A DNA stretch of 52,351 nt, filler included, from Sphacelaria rigidula (Eukaryota): NCBI GenBank assembly GCA_964200075.2. It is 4 parts of 4 records of this genome, joined end to end, with 100 filler letters (N's around TTAATTAATTAA, not from the genome) between each part and the next. Parts side by side here need not be neighbours in the genome. Positions count along the whole stretch, not along the records: positions 39,340 to 52,351 come from CAXNAA020003231.1; 3 more parts are not named here. One strand, 5' to 3'. A program made the translations under genes and the position numbers. Positions 13,015 to 52,351 of the stretch are shown here, in pieces. The stretch's first letter is position 1, and every line of letters begins with the position of its first letter. The notes under the pieces are model-generated. The model saw only the letters and a list, made by a program, of their open reading frames with translations. It ran no database searches and was not told the DNA's origin.

Positions 13015-13114
13015 NNNNNNNNNNNNNNNNNNNNNNNNNNNNNNNNNNNNNNNNNNNNTTAATTAATTAANNNNNNNNNNNNNNNNNNNNNNNNNNNNNN
13101 NNNNNNNNNNNNNN
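13015..13114. other. Assembly gap (100-bp spacer with TTAATTAATTAA linker)
   Basis: Pattern is N44-TTAATTAATTAA-N44; identical spacers lie at 26128-26227 and 39240-39339. Confidence 0.97.
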
Positions 13115-26127: not shown

Positions 26128-26227
26128 NNNNNNNNNNNNNNNNNNNNNNNNNNNNNNNNNNNNNNNNNNNNTTAATTAATTAANNNNNNNNNNNNNNNNN
26201 NNNNNNNNNNNNNNNNNNNNNNNNNNN
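26128..26227. other. Assembly gap (100-bp spacer)
   Basis: N run with TTAATTAATTAA linker. Confidence 0.97.
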
Positions 26228-28600: not shown

Positions 28601-28611
28601 ANNNNNNNNNN
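28601..28611. other. Small N gap with duplicated flanks
   Basis: polyG-atactaacttcccgcaagcgaaatccattcgtg occurs on both sides (~28535-28583 and ~28658-28713). Confidence 0.85.
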
Positions 28612-39239: not shown

Positions 39240-39339
39240 NNNNNNNNNNNNNNNNNNNNNNNNNNNNNNNNNNNNNNNNNNNNTTAATTAATTAANNNNN
39301 NNNNNNNNNNNNNNNNNNNNNNNNNNNNNNNNNNNNNNN
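39240..39339. other. Assembly gap (100-bp spacer)
   Basis: N run with TTAATTAATTAA linker. Confidence 0.97.
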
Positions 39340-40407
39340 TTCCCTCCACGACTTTCTTCCTATTTCGTACCTTTCTTAGGCAAAAACCGAGAAGGTAAAC
39401 CTTTCCTAGGCCATTGCGCTTATTTATTTATTTTACGGGGGGGTGGGGGTGGTAGACAGCACATCGTCCCACCGCCCATCACTCCACCACCCACGACACT
39501 CCACACACACACAGCCACTTGCTGCAAACCACACCGATCTGCAACATGAGCCGCCTTTAGACTTTCGGCTTTATAAAGGGCGGTAGCGCAGAGTCTGCGA
39601 TCGACTTTTCTGCCGAACCGTCTATATCTGTGTCTGCTACGGCGGCGGCTGTAGCACCAGTGGCCGCCCCAGTGCACTTTACCAAGAGTGGAGAGAGTGG
39701 GCATGCAAAGTTACCCGCGAAGGTAGCAGATCCTCTAGACTTCCCACACAACCCATCCCTGCAAGCCCACGTGTTCTAGTACGGGAAATGGAGACGTTCG
39801 GTCGAGAGGAAATCAGCTCTCATCATATCCAGTTTTTTCTACAAGCTTTGGAATTCTATTGCTCTGGCGTTTGGGTGTCTGGAGAGAGTATACCTTGTTG
39901 TGTAGCCGACAATGAAAAGAAATGGTCCTGCTGCCGACTTATCCCTTGTTTGGTGTAGAGAAAAGAAAAAGTGAGCGCGCATTTGCACTCATTATTTTTC
40001 ACCCAGTTTCGACGTTTGGCGCAGTTACTGAGTAAGGAGTGCGTTCGCACTTCGCACTTCGCAGAGCCAAGGTAAATGCTCCAATTCGATAGAAACATGA
40101 CGGAATAGTGACCGCGGAATATACTTTGGTATATCACTGACTTCAACAACATACTTTTCATCGTGCATCACACCTCGAGTTGTGATCAACGACCTCTTTT
40201 GCGACTTGCCCCTTGCATGAACCATTTTCGTCAAACCGAAGCATCACGCCGCGTGTTGTGTCGCCAATTCTATGATATCAGATAACAAATCACAAACCAC
40301 ACTGATGCTGCTGTACCTTCATACAATCAGGCGTGCACTCCGGGTTAGGTTGCTAGTGTCAGTGTAGTACCGTGAAGTCTTGCAAGCTGTGACCCCACCA
40401 AAACAGC

Positions 40408-40551
40408 CGTACCATATCGAGTATCAGAGTCGAGTATCGATACGTTTCGGCCCATGTTCCGCGTATCGAAAAAAATATCGATATCGACGTCTCGAGACCG
40501 ATACGTTGAAATATCGTATCGAACTTTGCTTTCCGTTCGATATTCAACACT
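40408..40551. repeat. ATCGA/TCGAT-rich repeat, probably a DNA-transposon subterminal region
   Basis: Dense tatcga/tcgata/cgatac motifs in both orientations. Confidence 0.5.
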
Positions 40552-40824
40552 GACTGACTGTAACCGTAAGTGCGATTTCAGCCGGGTTCTTTTCGTTGAT
40601 TCCGCCGCACATGCCACCCCAACTCTCTACACTTCGCAGCTGACTACAGTTTGATATTTCGTTCGATGAGAACGTGTCAGATCGCAGTGCTACGTGGGGT
40701 TGAAGACGCGCGTTGATTTGTAGATTACCACGATGTGTCATAGTAGGCACAACTCGCGAGATATCGTCTGTTAGAACCGGCTGAAGGAAAGTCCGCTTCT
40801 TAGGCAGCCCAGCCTGTAACACTA

Positions 40825-40827
<3 letters not shown>

Positions 40828-40867
<40 letters not shown>
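40828..40867. repeat. (TA)n microsatellite
   Basis: About 20 TA units. Confidence 0.92.
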
Positions 40868-40869
<2 letters not shown>

Positions 40870-41768
40870 GTCACGCAAAGCCGGCGATTCGCCCAAGGGC
40901 GTCGACAGATAACTCGTCATACATTTCATGCACCCGAGGGCACACCGCACGAGGCATCAAACACATTCATGGTGCACACAAGGGACGATTCATTACTGCC
41001 TCCTAGTGGAGGAGAAAATCTCCACGGTAACAGATATACGCATGCAATGTATGTACAGCAAACGTGTCTCCAAATTACCAAACAGACTCAATCGAAACGC
41101 AAAATCATCATCATGTTCGTACCGCTTCCGGTGCTGAGCCCTCCTTCGAACTGTTGCAATGGAAGTGTGAATCTTCAAAGTCAGAGAAGTTGGAGGAAAT
41201 ATTCAACCTCAAGAGGGAAGTCGAAAAGTACGGAATATATGCCCCTTTTTCGGCCACTCCTCATCAGGGCAGCTGGTTCGTTTTTCTTCTACTTTCCCCA
41301 AAAATATGGTGCTTTTCCGGCTTTCCACCCAAATACTCCGACATAAGATTTCGGAGAAATCGATAGTCTTACTGTGATCTATTGCCTCACTTGGATGAGA
41401 AATCCATCATCAGGTTTTCGGAGATTTGTTCGTATCCCGAAATTTTGGGAAATATTCCACAAACAATATCCTCACAGCTGTGAGAGGCTCACCGCTGTGC
41501 CTCCAGAGGGCCGGTCACAAGAGTGTCCAAAAACGATGTGGAACCATTATTGCGAAAACAGAAAACTATCCGCTAGCATTCGAGCCCCCCAACTCCGCTC
41601 TGACGAGTTTGTGAGGTTCAACAGTTCAACCACATGGGCAAGGCGGCAAAATTATGTGCCCCCCCATCCCACGAACGTAACACGCATAGCTCAAAACACG
41701 GCACGAAGCGTGAGGTGCACGCCTTTATGCCTATACTCGGGCAACAAAAAACCTCCGGCGTCGCGGTG

Positions 41769-44070
41769 TCATCTACTGTTCATCGAACTCTGAGAAGGAC
41801 CAGACGTTTCCAGCTCCAACTTCACGTTTGAACCCTCCCCTGTCTCGTCAACGTCTACACTGACACACGTGTTCACGCGTCCAGGTACCATTACCGGCGA
41901 ACCACAGAGCAACCCCATACTCCTACCGTCACTGCTGATCAAGCTACGACCACCACCTTCTCTGCTCCGACCAGTCGAAGGGGCACTCTGATGGCAACAC
42001 TCCCTCACCCCATCGCGACCATGTGTAGGAGAAGAAACTGCAAGCTCTGCTTTCATTCCTGCCCCTGCTCCTGCCCCCCAAGAAACCCCACCATCATCCC
42101 TCGAAGGTGCGTATCCCGAGAACGACGATATTTTTACATCCTGCCTGAGACGAAGGCATACGCTACGGGGAGCACCATCACCGTCGTTTGCGGCAGCAGC
42201 GGATAGTACTGTGCACTTCCGCTTCGTTTCTCGTACATGCGCAATGTTTCCTTCACTATTCTCCGTCGGCCTACGGTCGGGTGTGCCCGCGCCAGTGTTG
42301 AGCTTGGCGGTGTTCGACATTCCAGCTGTGTTGTGTGCAGGAGCATGCTGTCGGCGAAACATGGCCTCATCAGAGTTGTGCTTCTTGTTGATAGCCCATT
42401 GGGAGAACCCATCTTCACTACACCTCCCGTCGACCACATCTACTATTCCCGTCGTGGCATGCTTCGAGCAGAGCCGTGCCTTTGTGCTCTCCGCTACACC
42501 ACACGACGGCCGCGAGGAGCAGCTCTCGTGGCCGCATCGCTTGCTCCTCACATGCACCATTCCCGCTTTGGTATGCTTGGAACAGAACTGCATTTTTTTC
42601 CCCGCCTCGCCATATGATGCATGAGTAGAACAGCCCTCGTAGCCGCACCTCTTGCTCACCACATCCACCATTCCCGCCGTGGCATGCTTCGAGCAGAACT
42701 GCGCAGTTTTACTTCCCGCTACACCATAGGACGGCCGCGTGAAGCAGCCCTCGTAGCCGCACCTCTTGCTCACCACATCCACCATTCCCGCCGTGACATG
42801 CCTCGAGCAGAACTGCGCCTTTGCGCTCCCCGCTACACCATACAAGGCCCGTGTGGTGCAGCCCTCGTGGCCGCACCTTTTGATCCTCACATACACCATT
42901 CCCGTCGGGGCATGCTTGCAGCAGAACTGCGCATATGTGCTCCCCGCTACACCATACGACGGCCACTTGGAGCAGCCCTCGTGACCGCACCTCTTGCTCC
43001 TCACATGCACCATTCCCGCCGTGGCATGCTTGGAGCAGAACTGCGCAATTTTGCTTCCCGCCTCACCATACGACGGATGAAGACGGCAGCCCTCGTAGCC
43101 GCACCTCTTGCTTCTCACATTCACCATTCCCGCCGTGGCATGCCTCGAGCAGAACTGTACACTTGTGCTTCCCGCTACACCATACGACGGCTGCCTCGAG
43201 CAGTCGCCGTAGTCGCACGTCTTGATCCTCACATGCACCATTCCCGCCGTGGCATGCTTGGAGCAGAACTGCGCCTTCTTGCTCCCCGATACACCATACG
43301 ACGGATGAGTATGGCAGCCCTCCTGACCACACCTCTCGTTCGTCACATTGACCATTCCGGCCATGGCATGCTTGGAGCAGAACCGAGCTGTTTTGCTCCC
43401 CGCCACACCATACGACGGATGAGTAGAGCAGCCCTCCTGGCCGCACCTCTTGCCTTTCACATACACCATTTCCGCCGGGGCATGCTTGGAGCAGAACAGC
43501 GCATTTTTACTCCCCGCTACACCATACGACGGCCACTTGGAGCAGCCCTCCTGACCGCACCTCTTGCTAATAATTTGCACCATTCCCACCGTGGCATGCT
43601 TAGGAGCAGAACCGAACCTTTTTGCTCCCCGCTACACCATACGACGGATGAGTTAGGCAGCTCGCGTAGCAGCACCTCTTGCTCACCACGCTCACCATTC
43701 CCGCCATGGCATGTTTCGAGCAGAATTGCGCAGTTTTACTTTCCGCCACACCATACGACGGTTGCGTGGAGCAGCTATCGTAGCCGCACCTCTTGCTCCT
43801 CACACGCACCATTCCTTCTGCGGCATGCCTTGAGCAGAACTGCGCCTTCTTACTTCCCGCCACACCATACCACGGCCGCGTGGAGCAGCCCTCGTGGCCG
43901 CACCTCTTGCTCACGACATTCACCATTCCTGCCGTGGCATGCTGAGAGCACAAGTCCGGCATGGAGCCGTGTAAACCGTGAGATGGCTTCGAGCAGCCCT
44001 TGTTGAGGCACGTTTCCTCGCGACCTCGGCCATTAGCTCCTTCGCGTGGGGCTTCTTCGGAAACCAACTG
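41769..44070 (-). CDS. EsV-1-7 repeat (Cys/His zinc-finger-like) protein, 14 repeats plus 1 degenerate, with a low-complexity C-terminal tail; split by a 1-bp insertion at 43602 (pseudogene or sequencing error)
   Basis: 114-bp/38-aa tandem unit KRCGxEGCxxxPSYGVAGSKxAQFCSKHAxAGMVxVxS (C-x4-C-x16-C-x2-H), the motif of Ectocarpus siliculosus virus EsV-1-7 and of brown algal IMM-like proteins. ORFs 44085-43600 and 43589-41769 join into one frame if base 43602 is removed. The 5' end is uncertain: an acceptor at ~44071 or the ATG at 44033. Confidence 0.9.
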
Positions 44071-44359
44071 CTGACAGTAGCACAAATGCGAATACGGCGG
44101 AAAACAGTTCTTGAATCATGATCGAGAACGAGTTGAAGATTTTCAGATGACGACTGACTTCGTCGTCGTTCAACGTACTCGGGAAAAAAAGCAGCTGCCT
44201 ACACTCAACTAAGACCATGCTTCATGGAGGCTGAGGCCAACAACTACAGCACTACTCGCAAGATGATTCAAGGGAATGGGACGTGCTCTACACTAATGCA
44301 GAAAGATTCGAGAGCGAATGAAGCACTACAGTAGTGGGCGGTCTAACTATTCAGGGGTG

Positions 44360-44535
44360 TCTCGGGGTTTTCCTCGCGTACTACTCTTTGATATAACTTG
44401 AAATTCTAGCGTCGGCAAAGTTTGGTACAATGAATAGATCCTCCTCGAAACACATTGTCCAAGTCAGTGTTAGTTGGTGTTATCGGGCGATACGAGCAAG
44501 TACCCCGTTTATCAGGAGGGTGTTATTGACCGTGA
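44360..44535. repeat. Copy of the ~190-bp unit seen at 12490-13010
   Basis: accccgtttatcaggagggtgttattgaccgt is identical to ~12641-12672. Confidence 0.75.
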
Positions 44536-47500
44536 AACATAGTATTTCGGATCTAGTGTGATGAGTGAGTAGAATTAAAAATAAAAAATCCACATTTTTT
44601 ACAGATATGATCGGGACAGACCCCGGGAAGTTACGAATTCGATATGGATCTTTTATTGGGGATGAAAACCCGGAGAATTAAAATCTTCGTATCCACACCA
44701 AACCTCCGGAGTATGCTTCCATTTCTTCACTTGCTGGTAGCTATTGACTACTAATACACGCCATACAATTCTGGATTTTGATAACCGAAATATCGGGGTA
44801 CTAGGTGAAGAACCAATCTTGGGGGATTCTAGTCGTCTCCCAAACTTTCACAAGAGTTTGTATTTACGAAGCAACTGTTCGTAATCGAAAATGATACGCA
44901 TCAGCTGTGCTGTGCTGAGTCTTGGCCGCCGCTGGTGTTCATGGGCTGCAGTTGTGAACCTTCACATACATCGCCACATACATCGTGGTTGACAGGGTAT
45001 TCATGATGTGAGGTCGGCGCTTGTATGCTGTTCTGGCCATGAATTCAAAGACGAAGAATATTGAGCGTAAGGTGGTGGAGCATCCTGAGCGTCCCGTACA
45101 CCATCCCAACAAGGTTTCGCGATCCTGTGGAAGGGTGCGCAGAGTATTAGGATGACGGATGAGACTCCTGATGGGTGGTCTTGACTACACTGTAGTCGGG
45201 GTTCCGCTATACAAAGTAATACAGCGTAAAGCCATCGACCGATGGGACACGACCATGCGGATCCTTCCATAATATAACTGTCATTTTTCATGGGGTTCAA
45301 TAATGACTAAAACTACCTGACTTGTCCTCTTCACCGTCTGTTTTGAGGCAGAGCATGTGAACGCATCATGAAGCGCTTGCCGACACGGAAATGCATGGCA
45401 CCGCCTCATCTGTTGGTTTGGAGAGGCTGCATGCGATACCGAACCACGACCTGAATCGTGTGGGAGGTGACCGACGAAGATACAGTTATGGTTGACCCAT
45501 CATAAATATAAGACTCCTGCATGTATCATCCGCATCTAAGACGCATTCATTGTTTTATGACCGGAACTGTACAACGTGACTGTGTCATGTTTAGTACGGT
45601 TACATATATCACTGTACGGTACTGTGGTCAGAAGGAGCAACGCGGGCTGTCTGTTCAACAAGCGCGAGACCGAAAATGTGACAACTACCGTGACGCGCTG
45701 TAGTATTGATGGACACGTGGCATTCCATCGGTCGCAATAGCTGTTCAAGCGTGCGCCCTGTCCGTTTCACGAAGCGAGACAGCAACGAAAGGCTTATCCA
45801 TGCCCCATGAACAATCCACATGTACGACAGAACACAATACCATATCCCTGCTCCCGATTCGTCAAATGGAAAATGCCAAGTAATCTGCCAACCGTTGGGA
45901 AAGTTGCTGTAGATTCGCAGGATACCTCCACGTCTGGGGCGTTGTTCTAATCCGGATGATATCTGTTAGCTTCCTCATCTGTCCTGCTTCTGTTTCCGTC
46001 GGCCGCTAGGAATAGAACAGGGATACCTGTCCTGGGAGCTGGACGGCGATACACCCGATCGTTGAAAGCCAGTGTCTCATCTTGTAGTGCCGAATCTAGT
46101 ACGTGCACATGCGCAGAAAAATATCAATATCTGCTGAATCTCAATGCGCGAACGCGCATATGCTGATCTGGTAATACATGAGAACACATATATTACGTCC
46201 GAAGTGTGTTTATATGCATTTTAAACATGTACAACCTGGTGGCCATCGTTCTACGGAGTAAATTGGGTCATGTAGTGTTTGTTCAGGGTAACGTATAGCT
46301 TAAATCTTCTTGCTCTTGTGTCCTACACGCACAAAAGCTCGCATATATCTGATACCGATCGGAAAGGCTGTTTTGCGCCAGAAGAAAAAACAAGAACCAC
46401 AATATGTTAAACTGCCCGCCCAATCTTTGTGAATTTCCATGCTAATGGCATTCGAAAACATTCTTCTATGCCAGAATAAAAAAAGAAGTCAATATGTCAG
46501 AATGCCGGCCCTATATTTGTGAACTCCCGCACTTGGCCCACGAAAATCATTGCACATTTGAATAGAGGCTTTGCTTGAAAATTTCTCGACCGTGGGTAGA
46601 ATCACCACCATGAAAATTGGTCTACCAGTCGGGCATGAGACAGACAGCAAGCATGAGTCGGCGACACGTTCGGACGAGCAGGCAAGCTCAACACAGAAAC
46701 CGTTTGGAATATCGGCAACACCTACGATTTGCCCTCAAATTAACTTTCTCGCAGCCCAGAGCTTGTACACTGCGAGTAAATGCACATCAGGACACGCTGA
46801 TGCACTCACTTCCATATCATCAGCATCTGGGGGGTTGCTATGCTCGCAGGCCATTATTGATATGTACTGGGATACCCTCTGAATAAGGACAATCTGTACA
46901 AATTTATGCCCGGATCGACTGTAGAGGTGCTCAGATCGGGAGGTACGGTCGTACACACGCTGTCGGCGTTGCAACGTGCTGAAAGTTCGGCCACATATAA
47001 TGTAAACCACAGTCAACAAGCCCATCTGCCTCGAACTGGGGTTGCACGTTGCAGCAGTACGCGGCGAGGCGAAAAAAAGTCACGTTTTGTTCCGAAGTAT
47101 TCTATTTTCAATATTTCGGCGTATAACTGTCATGGGGCTGAATGGGGCCCGATTTTGGGCCCTTTATACAGGGAAAATGGACCAACCAACTACAGTCACT
47201 TGAATGCAGAAGAAATGAAACCTAAATGAGCCAATCAGTATCAATCACAAGTACATGCGTCACTCGAAATGACGACGGCGCTCATACGAAATGAAATATT
47301 GCAATAGTACAGTCTACAACCCTGTGACTGACGTTGCTGTGCACCTGTGCACAGGGTTACAACAGGAGGATAGATACTGCTGCTCGTGTGGTTGTTGTGC
47401 CCTTCTTGTTGTAGTATGTTGATGTGCGCATCTTTCAATCCAGATATCTTGACGACGAAGCAGAGGTTTGGACTGCAGTTTGATGCGTGCGTGCGCTTCC

Positions 47501-49079
47501 CACACACCAGAACTATACAGTGGCGCAGCGGCTTTCCGTAACGCATGCCGCGGAGTCCAATTTGATGTGTAGGTACATACAGCCTGCACAGTAAGACAGT
47601 ACGAATGTGGACTGATCTTGCCGACGCCAAAGTCGTGAGCTCAATCACGCCCAACCGTCGTCTTTTTTTCATCATTACCTTTTGCTCGACACTGTTGTTC
47701 AAAAGAACTGTCTGAAACTTGTGGCGGCGGGTCTGGGGAACTACAAGTCGTAGATATTATAATTGTAATGCGCAGCCAATCGCTGATATTGGGCTGCTCA
47801 TCTCCAGCCAAGTGACCTGGGACTGGTAATGGCGGCTACATGGAGAATGACTGCATCTATCGCGAAGGTGAAGAAAAGACGTCGCCAGGACTTCAGATAG
47901 GCCAGAGGCCACACGTGACGCCACCGGCAGGGGGCTGTTTGTAGGTGGTGTCTTCTCAACCTGCGAGCAGAACTGTGGCAGGGGGCTGTTTGTAATGGTT
48001 TCATGTATTGTGCAGTGACTGGGGACCTTCGTTCTTTATACCACTCTCATCTCGATTAGGGTTGAAGCCTACACTCGATATGGAGACTCGCACATACAAA
48101 ATGTCTCGTGATGAATTCATCACAATAGTACTACTAATATGGCTATAATGCTGGTGGTTTGTGCTTCGCCGTGGATTCATCACAACAATTGAATACACTG
48201 TAACCTGTAAGAATTGCCCTAGTCCGCGTTTGCTCATCACAACATCAACTCAAACACTGCCAGTTGAAATAATGCACATCTAAAGCGTCGTCGGCAGCCT
48301 GTGTAAGCCGAAGGTGGGTCGGGAAGTGCATCCCGCATACAACATCACCCAAGACTTACCTCGTTCAGTTTAATGTGAGAAGTCGTGGCCAATAGTTTGC
48401 GCCATGGCTCTTGGGGGTCGCTGCAAATCAAAGACATAAAGACGAATATGTATGGTTGGCGCCCTCCTCACAACAATACTCAAGACTGATGATACCTGTT
48501 GGTAGTCGTTGCCAATTTGGATTGCCGTGCAGCGCCAATGGCCGATATTGTTGTGCCCTTCTCGATTGGGGTAGTTGAGTCCAAGGCGAGAAGTCGACAC
48601 ATGCTTTCGAGAGGCACATGATACTTGGCAACCTCATCACAACAACAAGAGTAGTTGTATTGCGTACGCACCGCGTGAATGCGTATGCTGGAGACCGGCA
48701 TAACACGCGCTTTGAAAAGGCACATTGAGTCGGTAATCCGTGTACTCTATGCTGGAGGTGGAAGGAGAAACTCATTTTTCGATCAACACGCCCCACGATT
48801 CGGCGTCTTCATTTCTCACCAGAGAACCATGAAGCAAACAGAAATGTCGTGGGGGTGTTTCGGGAATTCTCACACAGACCGCTCCCAGCGAGCATGAGTG
48901 AGACAGCAGTCTCCACCGCGCCAGCGGCTGGTGAACAGGCCCTGGTGCCTCAGGGTGAGTTGCCGACCCTTCTGCATTGGGTGACAGCTCCGCTGCCGCA
49001 CCCGTGTTCGCTGCCATGCGTTAGCCCGCTGGTGCAGCTTCTTCGCACTTTGTTGCAAGGCGGTCGACTGCACACAGAT

Positions 49080-49260
49080 AACTGCCGAAGCGCGAGAGAA
49101 GGCAGCTGACGAGGCGGTGAAACCTTCGATGTGACTGTAGTTCCACATAGTAGGCCATGCCCGCTTCTGAGGGTACCGTCCTGATGCTCGCGTTTGGGGC
49201 TGAGCGCGGTGACTTTACCATACTGCAGACCGTGGTGTTTTGCATTTCGTGTACGGCGTG
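49080..49260 (-). mobile_element. Possible decayed BED zinc finger (hAT-type transposase N-terminus)
   Basis: Frameshifted peptides KTPRSAVW*SH and (G/C)LLCGTTVTSK/GFTASSAA resemble the BED consensus SxVWxHF...CxxC...GTSS. Confidence 0.22.
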
Positions 49261-51599
49261 GTCGTCGGAGTTGAGTCTCTGACGTGGCAACTGATGTCGT
49301 CAACTCGTCCAATTTGCTGCTTTTGCATGTTGGTTGACTAGTCATGATTTGGACTATGCTGTACGTCTACTGGTACAATTTCTCTTTTCGTCAAATGTGT
49401 ACACCTCATATGCCTCTTCGTTTGAGCTATGGACATGAAATGGAAAAAGGCCGCGAGTATTTCCACGTTTTCAGCCCAAATCGACATCGGAAAATCCTCA
49501 TCGAGGGATTGGTGGTTGATTGTTGGCTTTCGTACGCGCTATCTTTCGAGCTTGTGACTTGTATCTGGGGGCCCCGAAGTTGTGTGTTACTTTTCATAGT
49601 GTCGCCGTACTCTCTCTCATCCATCAGCCGATTTCTTTCATGTCTGCAGCTCTCTTTTTTTTCCTACTTTCGTTTCATTCGGAGAAGGGGGTGAAGCTGC
49701 TTAATCCTTGGCAGCCAAAGTAGGTCACCTGTTGAATAAGTATCAATCTCACTCGAAAAAATGTATAATGCATGATCTAGATGGACTACCCTGGCGGTCT
49801 ACAGGTTAAGCTTTTTCCTGCTGCGGCTGATGAGCATGACAAAAAAGGGTGAATAAATATTTTCGTGCCGAGGGGGCCGTGTGGTTTTTTCTCGCGTACG
49901 GCCATTTTGGTTTTTGACTGTTTTTCCCGAGTTCAACGAGCAATCTTGGGCCTACATGTTATGATGTAGCAGTGCTTTAGGTGAAAGTCACGGCACTGTA
50001 GAGTAGTCAGTCGTACCGTTCCTCCTCCTCGATGTATTGTTAGTTTTGACAATCATCTTGTACATAGCTCTCGTTGATGAATTGACAGCAATGAGCTTGG
50101 AACTAAAAAAATGGGCCTAGGGATAGGACGCAGTGCTAGAGATACGGCGTAGGGCTAGGTATGAGGGATGGTATACGGCGAATTCCCCAGTAACAATGTT
50201 TTCGTAAGATTGAGAGTCTAACGTTGCTTAGGAGTGACTTGTATTATTTTTTTTGTCGAAACTGACCAATTTCCCATTTTTTGTGTGCTCGCGCCTGTAA
50301 AACTGTCGTGTGCTTACAGCTACACATCGATATCCCATTCAAGGATAATATCAGAGGCTCCAGCGGCGAGCCACTACAGAAAGCGTTTCTGGCCTCGGGT
50401 AAGGCCCGGAGGGACATTTCGGAACTGAAACTCCTCTATTCGTTAATTGACCGCTCCTCACACTCAGTCGTATCCTCAACTCTCCACCTCACGAAAACAT
50501 TACCCTACTCAAATTCCGCACTGTAGAGCTGAGATTTACTGTCGAGTGAAGCCGCAAATGTCGAGGGGTAACCTTCCACCCTACATGCTGCCAGGCGTTG
50601 CTTCTCAGGGTTAGAATAATGAAGCGGACCTAGCCACGCCGCAGAATGCAACTACGCTGCACAGTGCACCAGTACAGTAGAGTGGTACATGCAGCAAGAA
50701 GAAGCAAGGACCGATCTCAGTACCCTGCTCTCGACTGTGATCACCACCAAGTCCTCTTTGGCCAGCAGGATGGGTTGTACGGTCAAACGAGCTCACCGCG
50801 ATGGTTCCATCATCACAGGTTCATCCTCGTTGTGTGAAAAAAAAGTCACCTCGACGCGTAGTAATGCTTGGCATTGTCTACCGACAGTACAGTAGAGTAG
50901 TACAACATTAGTCCTCACCGAGCTTGATGCTCCCTCTCCAACCCTAACTGCTACGAGCTACACGTTGGGCAGCAGAAAGCACGTGGGCGCAGGTATGTGG
51001 ATGTGTGGGTTGGTGTGTGAGAGGGTGCTTTCGGAAGTGGATGTGTTCGACAGATCAAACAAATCAGGACAGCAGAACAATACACAGAACGTAAGCGGTA
51101 CACCTACACCTCTTCGTGTACAACTGAGTTATGCCGTACAACTTACAGTGTTGTTCCTTCTCAATCATATGGAGGCGGTGTTTTGAAAAGTTATGCGTCG
51201 AGATAATCCGCACCTCGCTTGCGATGACGCCGACACTTGGATGATGCGTGGACTGGTACTACAGCAAGGTGTCACAGTCACAGCCGTAGCCGCGCAAGGC
51301 GCTGAGGGCCCCGTTTGGATGAAACGGTGGATACCATGAGTACCAGCTCTTTTTTTCTTTCAACACTTGCTGTCTGGTGACGATTATACAGGGTGCGGTA
51401 TCAGTTGGGCACGCAGGCCGCAACAGATCCTGCCGGCCTCATCATACGTCTTTGCCTAGTGATGGATGAACACTCGGAGAAACCTACAAAAGAATAATCG
51501 TATACGCTCCGTGATATATCTGAGGGTTGGGGACTGAACGTTCCCGGTCTAAGTCGCTCGACGGGTCGAGGTAAAACTCCCCTTCGCGCGACCAGTGGG

Positions 51600-52351
51600 T
51601 TCTGCAACGGACCCTTGCCGGCGTACCTGGCAAGGTGGCAACGTCTCCTTGCAGGTAGCACCACAACTTCCGGACACAGCGTGCTGACAGCTTGGCAACC
51701 AGCAACGTGGTTGTAGCGGTATTCCTCTGGCGGCATCAACTTGGAGTACGGTGCTTGACGTGTTTATTTTGGCGATTGTCCCACTTTCACTTCGCTCATA
51801 TGTTGCGGATTGTTTCACGATCTCTCCGCGCAACATTTTATGTGGGAATATATCACACCATGGACGAGGTCGTAGCAAGGGGTGGTATCCCACGTACACA
51901 TGGACCACAGCCCAAGCGTCTGCGTTCATGTGGCGAACTGCATCTGACGGCGGCGACTAAAAAGAGCGCAGGGCTAGGCTAAGGATGTGACGTGCTACGG
52001 TGTGCTATGTCACCGATACCCTGCCGCTATGCAGTGAGCAGGTAGTACCGCCCAAGGCGTCACTGCTGCGGTTGGTACGCAGTCCCGCACAGTGCGCAAG
52101 CAGTATATTACATTTATGATTTGAGACCAGAGCGCGTTGGGTAGGGCAGATCTGTAGAGAACCCTGCACCAACTCTGCCCTGCACTCCCGGACACGGATC
52201 TCGTTTCAGCGGCAATGGCTTCCGATGTGTGCTGTGACGGACCTCGTGCGTTATGCCGCTTTCTCCACCACGGGGGGTCGCCGGTGACGCCAGCTGCTCG
52301 TGCTGACAGTGACCACTCCTCTTCGCACGATAACCTCCCCTCTGAGCACAA
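51600..52351 (-). mobile_element. Decayed Ty1/copia retrotransposon fragment (integrase C-terminus to RT start)
   Basis: RVLYRSALPNALWSQIINVIYCLRT...PTAAVTP matches the copia pattern ML..SxLPxxLWxEA...YLxNR.P...TP. RHMNADAW...YVGY matches KLxxKAxxGxFVGY. Frameshifted RYN/LVAK...KETLPP matches RYKARLVAKG...ETFAP. The motifs are in copia order. Confidence 0.55.

Follow-up and report, generated by a model that had tools for sequence, protein, structure and literature searches.

The window analysed here is a 52,351-nucleotide (nt) stretch of the Sphacelaria rigidula assembly GCA_964200075.2, four parts joined end to end, and its last part (positions 39,340 to 52,351, CAXNAA020003231.1) contains a long tandem array of EsV-1-7 repeats on the minus strand. 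The array spans 42423-44010 and consists of 14 units, typically of 38 amino acids (aa) or 114 nt, with the ligand pattern C-x4-C-x16-C-x2-H. An earlier reading of the same DNA (the original prediction) had described 14 units of about 38 aa with invariant C, C, C, H ligands and had placed them in the EsV-1-7 family. Both statements are confirmed. Tandem Repeats Finder reports a repeat at 42445-43950 with a period of 114, 13.2 copies, 78% matches and a score of 1608. The repeats are encoded in two overlapping minus-strand frames, 43600-44115 (171 codons) and 41769-43631 (620 codons), and the Pfam model PF19114 (EsV_1_7_cys) matches four stretches of the open reading frame (ORF) at 43600-44115 (E 7.1e-50, 167 bits) and ten stretches of that at 41772-43631 (E 1.1e-144, 470 bits), against a cut-off of 25 bits. 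A regular expression for C-x4-C-x14-18-C-x2-H recovered 13 intact units, the 14th (unit 4) being cut by a frameshift. The units run, on the minus strand and each from its first Cys codon to its last codon, as follows.

44010-43903, minus strand: unit 1
43902-43789, minus strand: unit 2
43788-43675, minus strand: unit 3
43674-43560, minus strand: unit 4, contains the frameshift
43559-43446, minus strand: unit 5
43445-43332, minus strand: unit 6
43331-43218, minus strand: unit 7
43217-43104, minus strand: unit 8
43103-42990, minus strand: unit 9
42989-42876, minus strand: unit 10
42875-42762, minus strand: unit 11
42761-42648, minus strand: unit 12
42647-42537, minus strand: unit 13
42536-42423, minus strand: unit 14

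Unit 1 is 36 aa long, unit 13 is 37 aa, and the other 12 are 38 aa. The four ligands are kept in 14 of 14 units, with the His of unit 4 lying beyond the frameshift, so that all 56 ligand codons of the array are intact. Their spacing is canonical in 12 units; one unit has x14 and one x15 in place of x16. The mean nucleotide identity of unit against unit is 0.79. Immediately behind unit 14, the 38 codons at 42309-42422 hold a C, a QH and an AGM in register with the units, and these 114 nt are 37% identical to the units, compared with 27-29% for flanking DNA. From this likeness, the segment may be a decayed 15th unit. A pattern scan found no second EsV motif in the window, the four other matches either carrying stops or showing no likeness. 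An open frame of 462 codons also runs antisense through the array (42618-44006, plus strand); it is a by-product of stop-free periodic sequence and not evidence of a gene.

The EsV-1-7 proteins are among the gene families that have expanded most in brown algae; a preprint gives 95-335 genes per genome. One member, IMMEDIATE UPRIGHT (IMM), controls early development in Ectocarpus, and the preprint methods give it five EsV-1-7 repeats. In the parts of the literature available to us, the domain is called a possible new class of zinc finger and its molecular function is still described as unknown, in agreement with the original prediction that its ligand is not established. A literature search on EsV-1-7 and PF19114 found no publication proposing a recognition code or reporting nuclease fusions, with the proviso that the preprint's supplementary tables may hold family-wide data. 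The locus shares with IMM and EsV-1 gene 7 (PF19114/IPR043822) the Pfam repeat, the C-x4-C-x16-C-x2-H pattern, the 38-aa period and the lack of any other domain. It differs from them in its 14 units (at most 10 canonical units occur in the best 120 of 169 relatives), in the unusual diversity of one column discussed below, and in its frameshift. Overall, the locus is an ordinary representative of an established family, if a long and broken one.

The gene model was derived from contigs of three sequencing runs of the same organism (X1, X3 and X4) and of a related 'algae metagenome' (X8), aligned to 39340-49000. It comprises the following features.

48360-48437, minus strand: coding end of exon 1, an ATG at 48437-48435 plus 25 codons, followed by a GTAAGT donor; translation MSLICSDPQEPWRKLLATTSHIKLNE
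44068-48359, minus strand: intron of 4292 nt, GT..AG, defined by an X1 contig joint 44067->48360, with donor GTAAGT and acceptor ...CTGTCAGCAG
44011-44067, minus strand: start of exon 2, 19 codons LVSEEAPREGANGRGREET, in frame with exon 1 and units 1-4
44033-44031, minus strand: second ATG, in another frame within the start of exon 2
42423-44010, minus strand: EsV-1-7 array of 14 units, from Tandem Repeats Finder, PF19114 and the regular expression
43600-43602, minus strand: TAA stop in unit 4 made by an extra base at 43602; units 5-14 are shifted to another frame
41772-42422, minus strand: Ser/Gly/Ala-rich tail of 217 codons in the frame of units 5-14, with its stop codon at 41769-41771
40966-41768, minus strand: likely 3' untranslated region, covered by contigs of X1 (40966-42654), X3 and X4 with 0 differences

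Both 40966-42654 and 43885-44067 are covered by contigs of X1, X3 and X4, at depths of 225-445 and with 0 differences. Depth falls to 0-8 at 44831-47091 and again at 47415-49000; the bin between these two (47092-47414) is higher and looks repeat-like. One X1 contig, with 63 letters on its shorter side, joins 44067 to 48360. The joint reads CT..AC on the plus strand and skips 4292 nt bounded by GTAAGT...CAG on the minus strand, which indicates a spliced transcript; the RNA nature of X1 rests on this one contig, as no run is recorded as RNA. The exon-1 ATG at 48437 begins 26 codons ahead of the donor and shares its frame with exon 2 and units 1-4. The X3 and X4 contigs end at the acceptor (44068-44069), and their loose ends beyond it match neither exon 1 nor one another, which suggests alternative first exons or paralogues sharing the first units.

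The extra base at 43602 makes a real frameshift. It is present in X1, X3 and X4, where the depth without it is 0/437.8, 0/238.7 and 0/315.9, respectively. Because of this base, a product started at the exon-1 ATG would stop in this organism after about 3.6 units, and neither ATG (48437 or 44033) gives the full array in the window allele. The copy is therefore either a truncated allele of recent origin or a pseudogene whose transcription continues. In X8, the extra base is absent at 16.1 of 21.3 depth, and one more letter stands behind 44012 (41.6/41.6 depth). By frame arithmetic, this letter would bring the 44033 ATG in frame with the units. Together with the absence of the 43602 base, it would give X8 a single-exon ORF from the second ATG through all 14 units; the window organism differs from X8 at both sites.

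These observations bear on a simple alternative, in which the locus is a dead pseudogene and its unit-to-unit variation is nothing but decay. The stop in unit 4, the lack of an ATG that opens the full array and the possible decayed unit behind it would fit such a history. Set against them are the 56 intact ligand codons, an omega of 0.33 for the unit scaffold (see below), the absence of any further stop in the 620 codons of units 5-14 and tail behind the shift, the related population that mostly lacks the extra base, and a transcript that is still made and spliced. We take these to mean that the variation predates the break, and we consider this alternative very improbable.

What the units do was approached from charge, predicted structure and the domains of relatives. 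The array carries a net charge of +50 over 529 aa (isoelectric point 9.5), and 14 of 14 units are net positive; units across the family average +2.7, with 84% positive. In this and what follows, columns are numbered from the first Cys of each unit. The conserved basic columns 18, 19, 37 and 38 would confer a general affinity for DNA or another polyanion. An AlphaFold2 model of units 9-14 (predicted local distance difference test, pLDDT, 88.9) consists largely of coil; columns 12-14 and 31-33 form short strands. The model of a relative (P0211, pLDDT 92.6) repeats this unit pattern and adds a helix of three residues at CxxH, which DSSP assigns in some units of the models. Each unit is predicted to be a zinc knuckle with two short strands and, given its invariant ligands and the confident model, most likely binds one zinc through C1, C2, C3 and H. 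Since the conserved V32 and V34 alternate with them, columns 33 and 35 should share an exposed strand face. Unit-individual residues exposed there and elsewhere (column 9, and columns 33, 35 and 36 on or after the MVxV strand) could then give each unit a surface of its own.

The relatives supply the functional context. An exhaustive search returned 6534 representative clusters at E <= 1e-3. Among the best 150 representatives, 87 have, behind the array, a C-terminal domain with the motif RPD...E-V-D-E-x-Q-H...RxNPD, and the same nuclease-like domain is found in 120 of 237 relatives (P0001-P0120 and P0208-P0324). An alignment of 120 proteins shows invariant E, D, E and H and nearly invariant R-P-D, Q, E, R and R-x-N-P-D. 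No Pfam model covers this domain in 59 + 58 proteins. Foldseek with a model of the domain returned only PD-(D/E)xK-type nucleases (E 0.015-0.2), and structural alignment placed the catalytic domain of I-Bth0305I first (3r3p_B: Z 8.7, root-mean-square deviation 3.1, 94/98 residues) and Vsr second (1vsr: Z 8.3). The arrays of nuclease-bearing relatives are homologous to that of the window (P0009, E 1e-89; P0209, E 1.1e-127). These metagenome proteins, similar to the Vsr/I-Bth0305I ('EDxHD') group, have 5-12 units that are 36-39% identical to those of the window over several units, and columns 9, 35 and 36 are the most unit-individual there too. A second kind of fusion comes from the literature: the Ectocarpus Tc1/mariner transposase TcMar-2_Ec32 is reported to bear an N-terminal EsV-1-7 domain.

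In the window protein itself, the tail has no recognisable domain, Pfam giving only PF19114 and sub-threshold matches. We rate DNA binding as the likeliest job of the repeat because of its fusion to a nuclease and a transposase, proteins whose non-catalytic module usually binds DNA. The locus is then read as a two-exon transcribed EsV-1-7 gene encoding 14 zinc-binding modules and a low-complexity tail, with an array most likely to bind DNA or a polyanion and a copy that is truncated. We hold this reading, taken as a whole, to be somewhat better than an even bet; zinc binding, DNA binding and a part for the variable residues in specificity are what we infer beyond the gene structure.

Several results weigh against it. 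The copy is frameshifted and so may have no function in Sphacelaria rigidula, and the window protein has neither nuclease, transposase nor other domain by Pfam and by a check of its tail for the relatives' motif: in place of the RPD...E-V-D-E-x-Q-H domain it has the 217-aa Ser/Gly-rich tail. The nuclease-fold match of the relatives is middling (Z 8.7), and Foldseek gave it no hit at E <= 0.001. For the array, Foldseek against the PDB with the six-unit model found at best hevein lectins (E 0.68), and a wide structural search with the same model found 0 of 48,161 chains at Z >= 2. By sequence, the PDB yielded one chance match (E 1.2), a PDB search with the profile of A2 yielded none, and an Atlas search gave no usable match. 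Finally, there are relatives in which the array is joined to a ubiquitin protease, EF-hands or a reverse transcriptase. Faulty gene models may lie behind such fusions, but they would fit a protein-binding role.

The original prediction had gone further, proposing that the array is a modular nucleic-acid reader. Of this, binding to nucleic acid has gained indirect backing from the basic array, the 120 of 237 nuclease fusions and the reported Ectocarpus transposase; reading of bases unit by unit has not. The starting point for that proposal was the variation between units, which is real. The triplets given for the three residues after the second Cys in units 2-14 (STR, STQ, LTH, SKW, STH, HTH, SRQ, RLH, SKW, TTR, FTR, STH, SSR) are exact, and the x of MVxV (column 33) takes 7 residue types. 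Over units 2-14, entropy is 2.66 bits at column 33, 2.14 at column 19, 1.89 at column 35, 1.88 at each of columns 9 and 28, 1.85 at column 7, 1.70 at each of columns 8 and 36, and 1.53 at column 3; about ten columns are variable in this array. Because entropy is similar at columns 19, 35, 28, 36 and 3, the two slots singled out originally, both of them real, are only two of about five variable patches. Column 9, the third residue after the second Cys, is R4/H5/Q2/W2 in units 2-14.

To place these values in the family, we used the best 120 of 169 relatives at E <= 1e-3 among 8000 scored candidates. The best relatives are 45-65% identical, and those with names come from Sphacelaria rigidula, Ectocarpus species, Scytosiphon promiscuus and Pylaiella littoralis. 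The set holds 480 canonical units, 473 of them distinct, with (4,16) ligand spacing in 479 matches and a period of 38 in 267 unit pairs. At column 9, the distinct units have R119, Q101, H48, K34, I28, T22, Y22, L20 and others; R, Q, H or K thus accounts for 302 of 473. N or D occupies column 33 in 379 of 473. From these compositions, the R/Q/H/W alphabet and the diversity of column 33 are features of this array and not of the family: the restriction of column 9 to R/Q/H/W, as originally described, holds here but fails in relatives, which also use K, I, T, Y and L.

Family entropy reaches at least 3 bits at 13 of 34 non-ligand columns (2, 3, 4, 7, 9, 14, 15, 24, 25, 28, 29, 35 and 36), and more than half of the non-ligand columns are variable across the family. 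Variation within proteins was separated from variation between proteins in 72 arrays with at least 4 units (388 units). Units of one protein differ most at columns 9 (0.81), 35 (0.79) and 36 (0.79). The ratio of within- to between-protein variation is 0.89-0.94 for columns 9, 35 and 36 and 0.92 for column 33, compared with 0.36-0.80 for subfamily-specific columns such as 13, 15, 27 and 28. Columns 13, 15, 27, 28 and 7 vary mainly between proteins, and adjacent units are correlated at columns 13, 27, 15, 28, 25, 17, 4, 29 and 7 and hardly at columns 9, 33, 35 and 36. On these alignments, column 9 is unit-individual, and columns 7 and 8 behave as ordinary fast sites. The entropy comparison proposed with the original prediction, run here on database relatives, shows that unit-individual columns exist and that most non-ligand columns vary. 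Columns 9, 33, 35 and 36 are weakly coupled to one another (0.08-0.21, standard deviation 0.06). A contact between columns 9 and 33 was considered from pairings within the window array (R9-D33 in 3/4, W9-Y33 in 2/2 and H9-H33 in 3/5 units) and rejected, as the pair ranks 65th in covariation across the family, where R-D (56) is about as frequent as R-N (53).

Selection was gauged by parsimony counts on a neighbour-joining tree of 13 units (2-14), which carries 52.5 synonymous and 107.5 nonsynonymous substitutions; the pooled pairwise proportions of synonymous and nonsynonymous differences among these units are 0.33 and 0.19. The counts are weak and saturated because there are about 2 changes per synonymous site. 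Omega is 0.33 for the 28 less variable columns, which shows purifying selection on the scaffold. For the ten variable columns it is 1.29 against the global synonymous rate and 1.06 against their own. At columns 7, 8, 9 and 33, it is 1.36 against the global rate (26 nonsynonymous changes, 19.1 expected, Poisson P 0.08, with saturated synonymous sites), which cannot be told from 1. In the dN/dS comparison suggested originally, variable sites evolve at about the neutral rate, and the counts do not show diversifying selection.

Values near 1 invite an explanation with no code at all, in which the variable columns are exposed and weakly constrained residues of a zinc-stabilised scaffold, the partner is a protein or binding is unspecific, and the array acts as a mere spacer or adaptor. 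The high family entropy at 13 of 34 columns and the existence of fusions to UCH/DUSP/MYND and EF-hands agree with it, as does the proportionality of changes to diversity when all close relatives are pooled (see below). It does not readily account for the strong positive charge on every unit, nor for the nuclease domain that half of the close relatives carry and that requires a module to target it to DNA, nor for a difference between nuclease-fused and nuclease-free arrays described next. We regard it as unlikely.

Changes between close relatives were counted on protein sequences only, as the minimum number per column within orthologous or near-identical groups, against an expectation proportional to unit-to-unit diversity. 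In a first set (9 groups, 40 units, 168 changes), column 9 had only 3 changes. The idea that column 9 is conserved between orthologues overall was dropped, as this signal was lost on enlargement and kept only when arrays were split by nuclease. In the enlarged set (18 groups, 76 units, 294 changes), columns 9, 33, 35 and 36 have 42 changes against 46.8 expected, and changes follow diversity (Spearman 0.86). Nuclease-free arrays (42 units, 162 changes) change less than expected at these four columns (15 vs 25.9, P 0.015), whereas nuclease-fused arrays (34 units, 132 changes) change more (27 vs 20.8), a contrast with a Fisher P of 0.007. With resampling of whole groups, the shares are 9.3% and 20.5%, the bootstrap interval of the difference is 0.03-0.22 and the label-permutation P is 0.016. 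The four columns were picked after the first small test and the counts are small, so that the contrast is a post hoc lead, a hint drawn from protein alignments. In the fused arrays, the loop columns 7-11 also show an excess (34 changes vs 22.9 expected). Among near-identical nuclease-fused proteins, column 11 has 11 changes (4.9 expected), column 36 has 9 (4.9) and column 8 has 7 (3.2); columns 8 and 11 lie in the loop after the second Cys, and column 36 just past the MVxV strand.

This is the evidence on which a recognition code has to be judged. In its original form, each unit would read a few bases through columns 7-9 and 33, and the array would gain new specificities as its units are duplicated and shuffled, driven by an arms race against transposons or viruses. 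Position-specific variation, the wealth of R, Q, H and K at column 9 and the nucleotide tree, on which units 5 and 10 (both SKW...P28...Y33) are duplicates, are in its favour, as are the excess at columns 9, 33, 35 and 36 and at columns 7-11 in nuclease-fused relatives and the deficit at the four columns in nuclease-free ones. Other results speak against it. Omega at the proposed reading sites is not distinguishable from 1; pooled changes track diversity; columns 7 and 8 evolve quickly among close relatives and tend to agree from one unit to the next; column 33 is mostly N or D in the family; and the 9-33 pair is unremarkable in covariation. The four-column set was fixed once the first small test had been seen, and none of the evidence concerns targets. 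Programming by repeat shuffling is not upheld, given the omega of 1.36, the lack of a fixed alphabet, the missing 9-33 coupling, the many variable columns, the differing fold and the truncation of this copy by the frameshift, and nothing in the analysis links the gene to transposon or viral targets. Searching viral contigs with one protein yielded a single weak locus (L001), with 33% identity across 40 residues. We consider a code of this kind improbable.

A modified proposal starts from the contrast between the two sorts of array. EsV-1-7 units might be modular DNA readers with a specificity patch at columns 9, 33, 35 and 36, which would be fixed in cellular brown-algal orthologues with stable targets and turned over in nuclease-fused arrays during re-targeting. 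We put this forward as a doubtful, if testable, idea.

The array had also been likened to C2H2 (KRAB) zinc-finger, TALE and PPR arrays. The resemblance is confined to the layout, in which small modules follow one another in tandem, their scaffold conserved and a few positions individual to each unit. The predicted fold, mostly coil with short strands, is neither the beta-beta-alpha fold of C2H2 fingers nor a helical repeat, so that a working mode like theirs finds no support. Unlike C2H2 fingers, the window units have CCCH ligands with other spacing, and there is no zf-C2H2 or KRAB match at E <= 0.1; in contrast to C2H2/KRAB arrays, no effector domain was found in the window protein and no positive selection was shown. 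Compared with TALE and PPR proteins, the models contain no helical repeat, and about ten columns vary with no fixed two- or four-residue alphabet. Treble-clef fingers consist of a knuckle followed by a CxxH at a short helix. Some modelled units do have a three-residue helix at CxxH, and one relative gives a weak DUF4379 match (E 7.7e-4), but no structural match reached Z >= 2. The WRKY19-type zinc-finger repeat (PF24906) weakly matches the C-x4-C part (window protein, E 0.077; relatives P0043 and P0169, 36-42 bits summed, with no single stretch passing); the window unit is longer, 38 aa against a 24-position profile, and there is no structural match. Summed weak Pfam matches to the zinc-binding domain of coronavirus nsp13 (PF20632, at most 41 bits, no single stretch passing) were seen in P0009, P0024 and P0082, and Foldseek with the window model listed nsp13 at E 5-10. 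This likeness probably reflects a shared Cys/His pattern.

Alone, the locus adds little; with its relatives, it sharpens the idea of the repeat as a DNA-binding module with columns 9, 33, 35 and 36 as the candidate positions. The yield of the analysis is this column list and the contrast between nuclease-free and nuclease-fused arrays, both testable. Should this idea hold, a large family restricted to one lineage would be explained, and a new modular scaffold for DNA binding might become available. If the modular-reader patch were real, zinc fingers and TALEs would be joined by a third natural class of programmable DNA-binding repeat. If the variation is surface drift only, the family stays a zinc scaffold.

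None of the 17 other long ORFs of the window has a Pfam match, and no inverted repeats flanking the gene were found. N runs occur at 13015-13114, 26128-26227 and 39240-39339, each as 44 + 44 N with 12 bases between, and a further run of 10 N lies at 28602-28611; these are masked or gap stretches. The intron contains a repeat region of very high copy number at about 44185-44830. Summed X8 contig depth rises to 204,226 at 44508-44830 within it and to 41,791 at 40632-40954, and several X8 joints connect 40188-40553 with about 44325. The intron segment 44185-44830 and the 3' flank segment 40632-40954 are probably high-copy, transposon-derived repeats. A (TA)20 microsatellite lies at 40828-40867, just past the end of the transcript cover.

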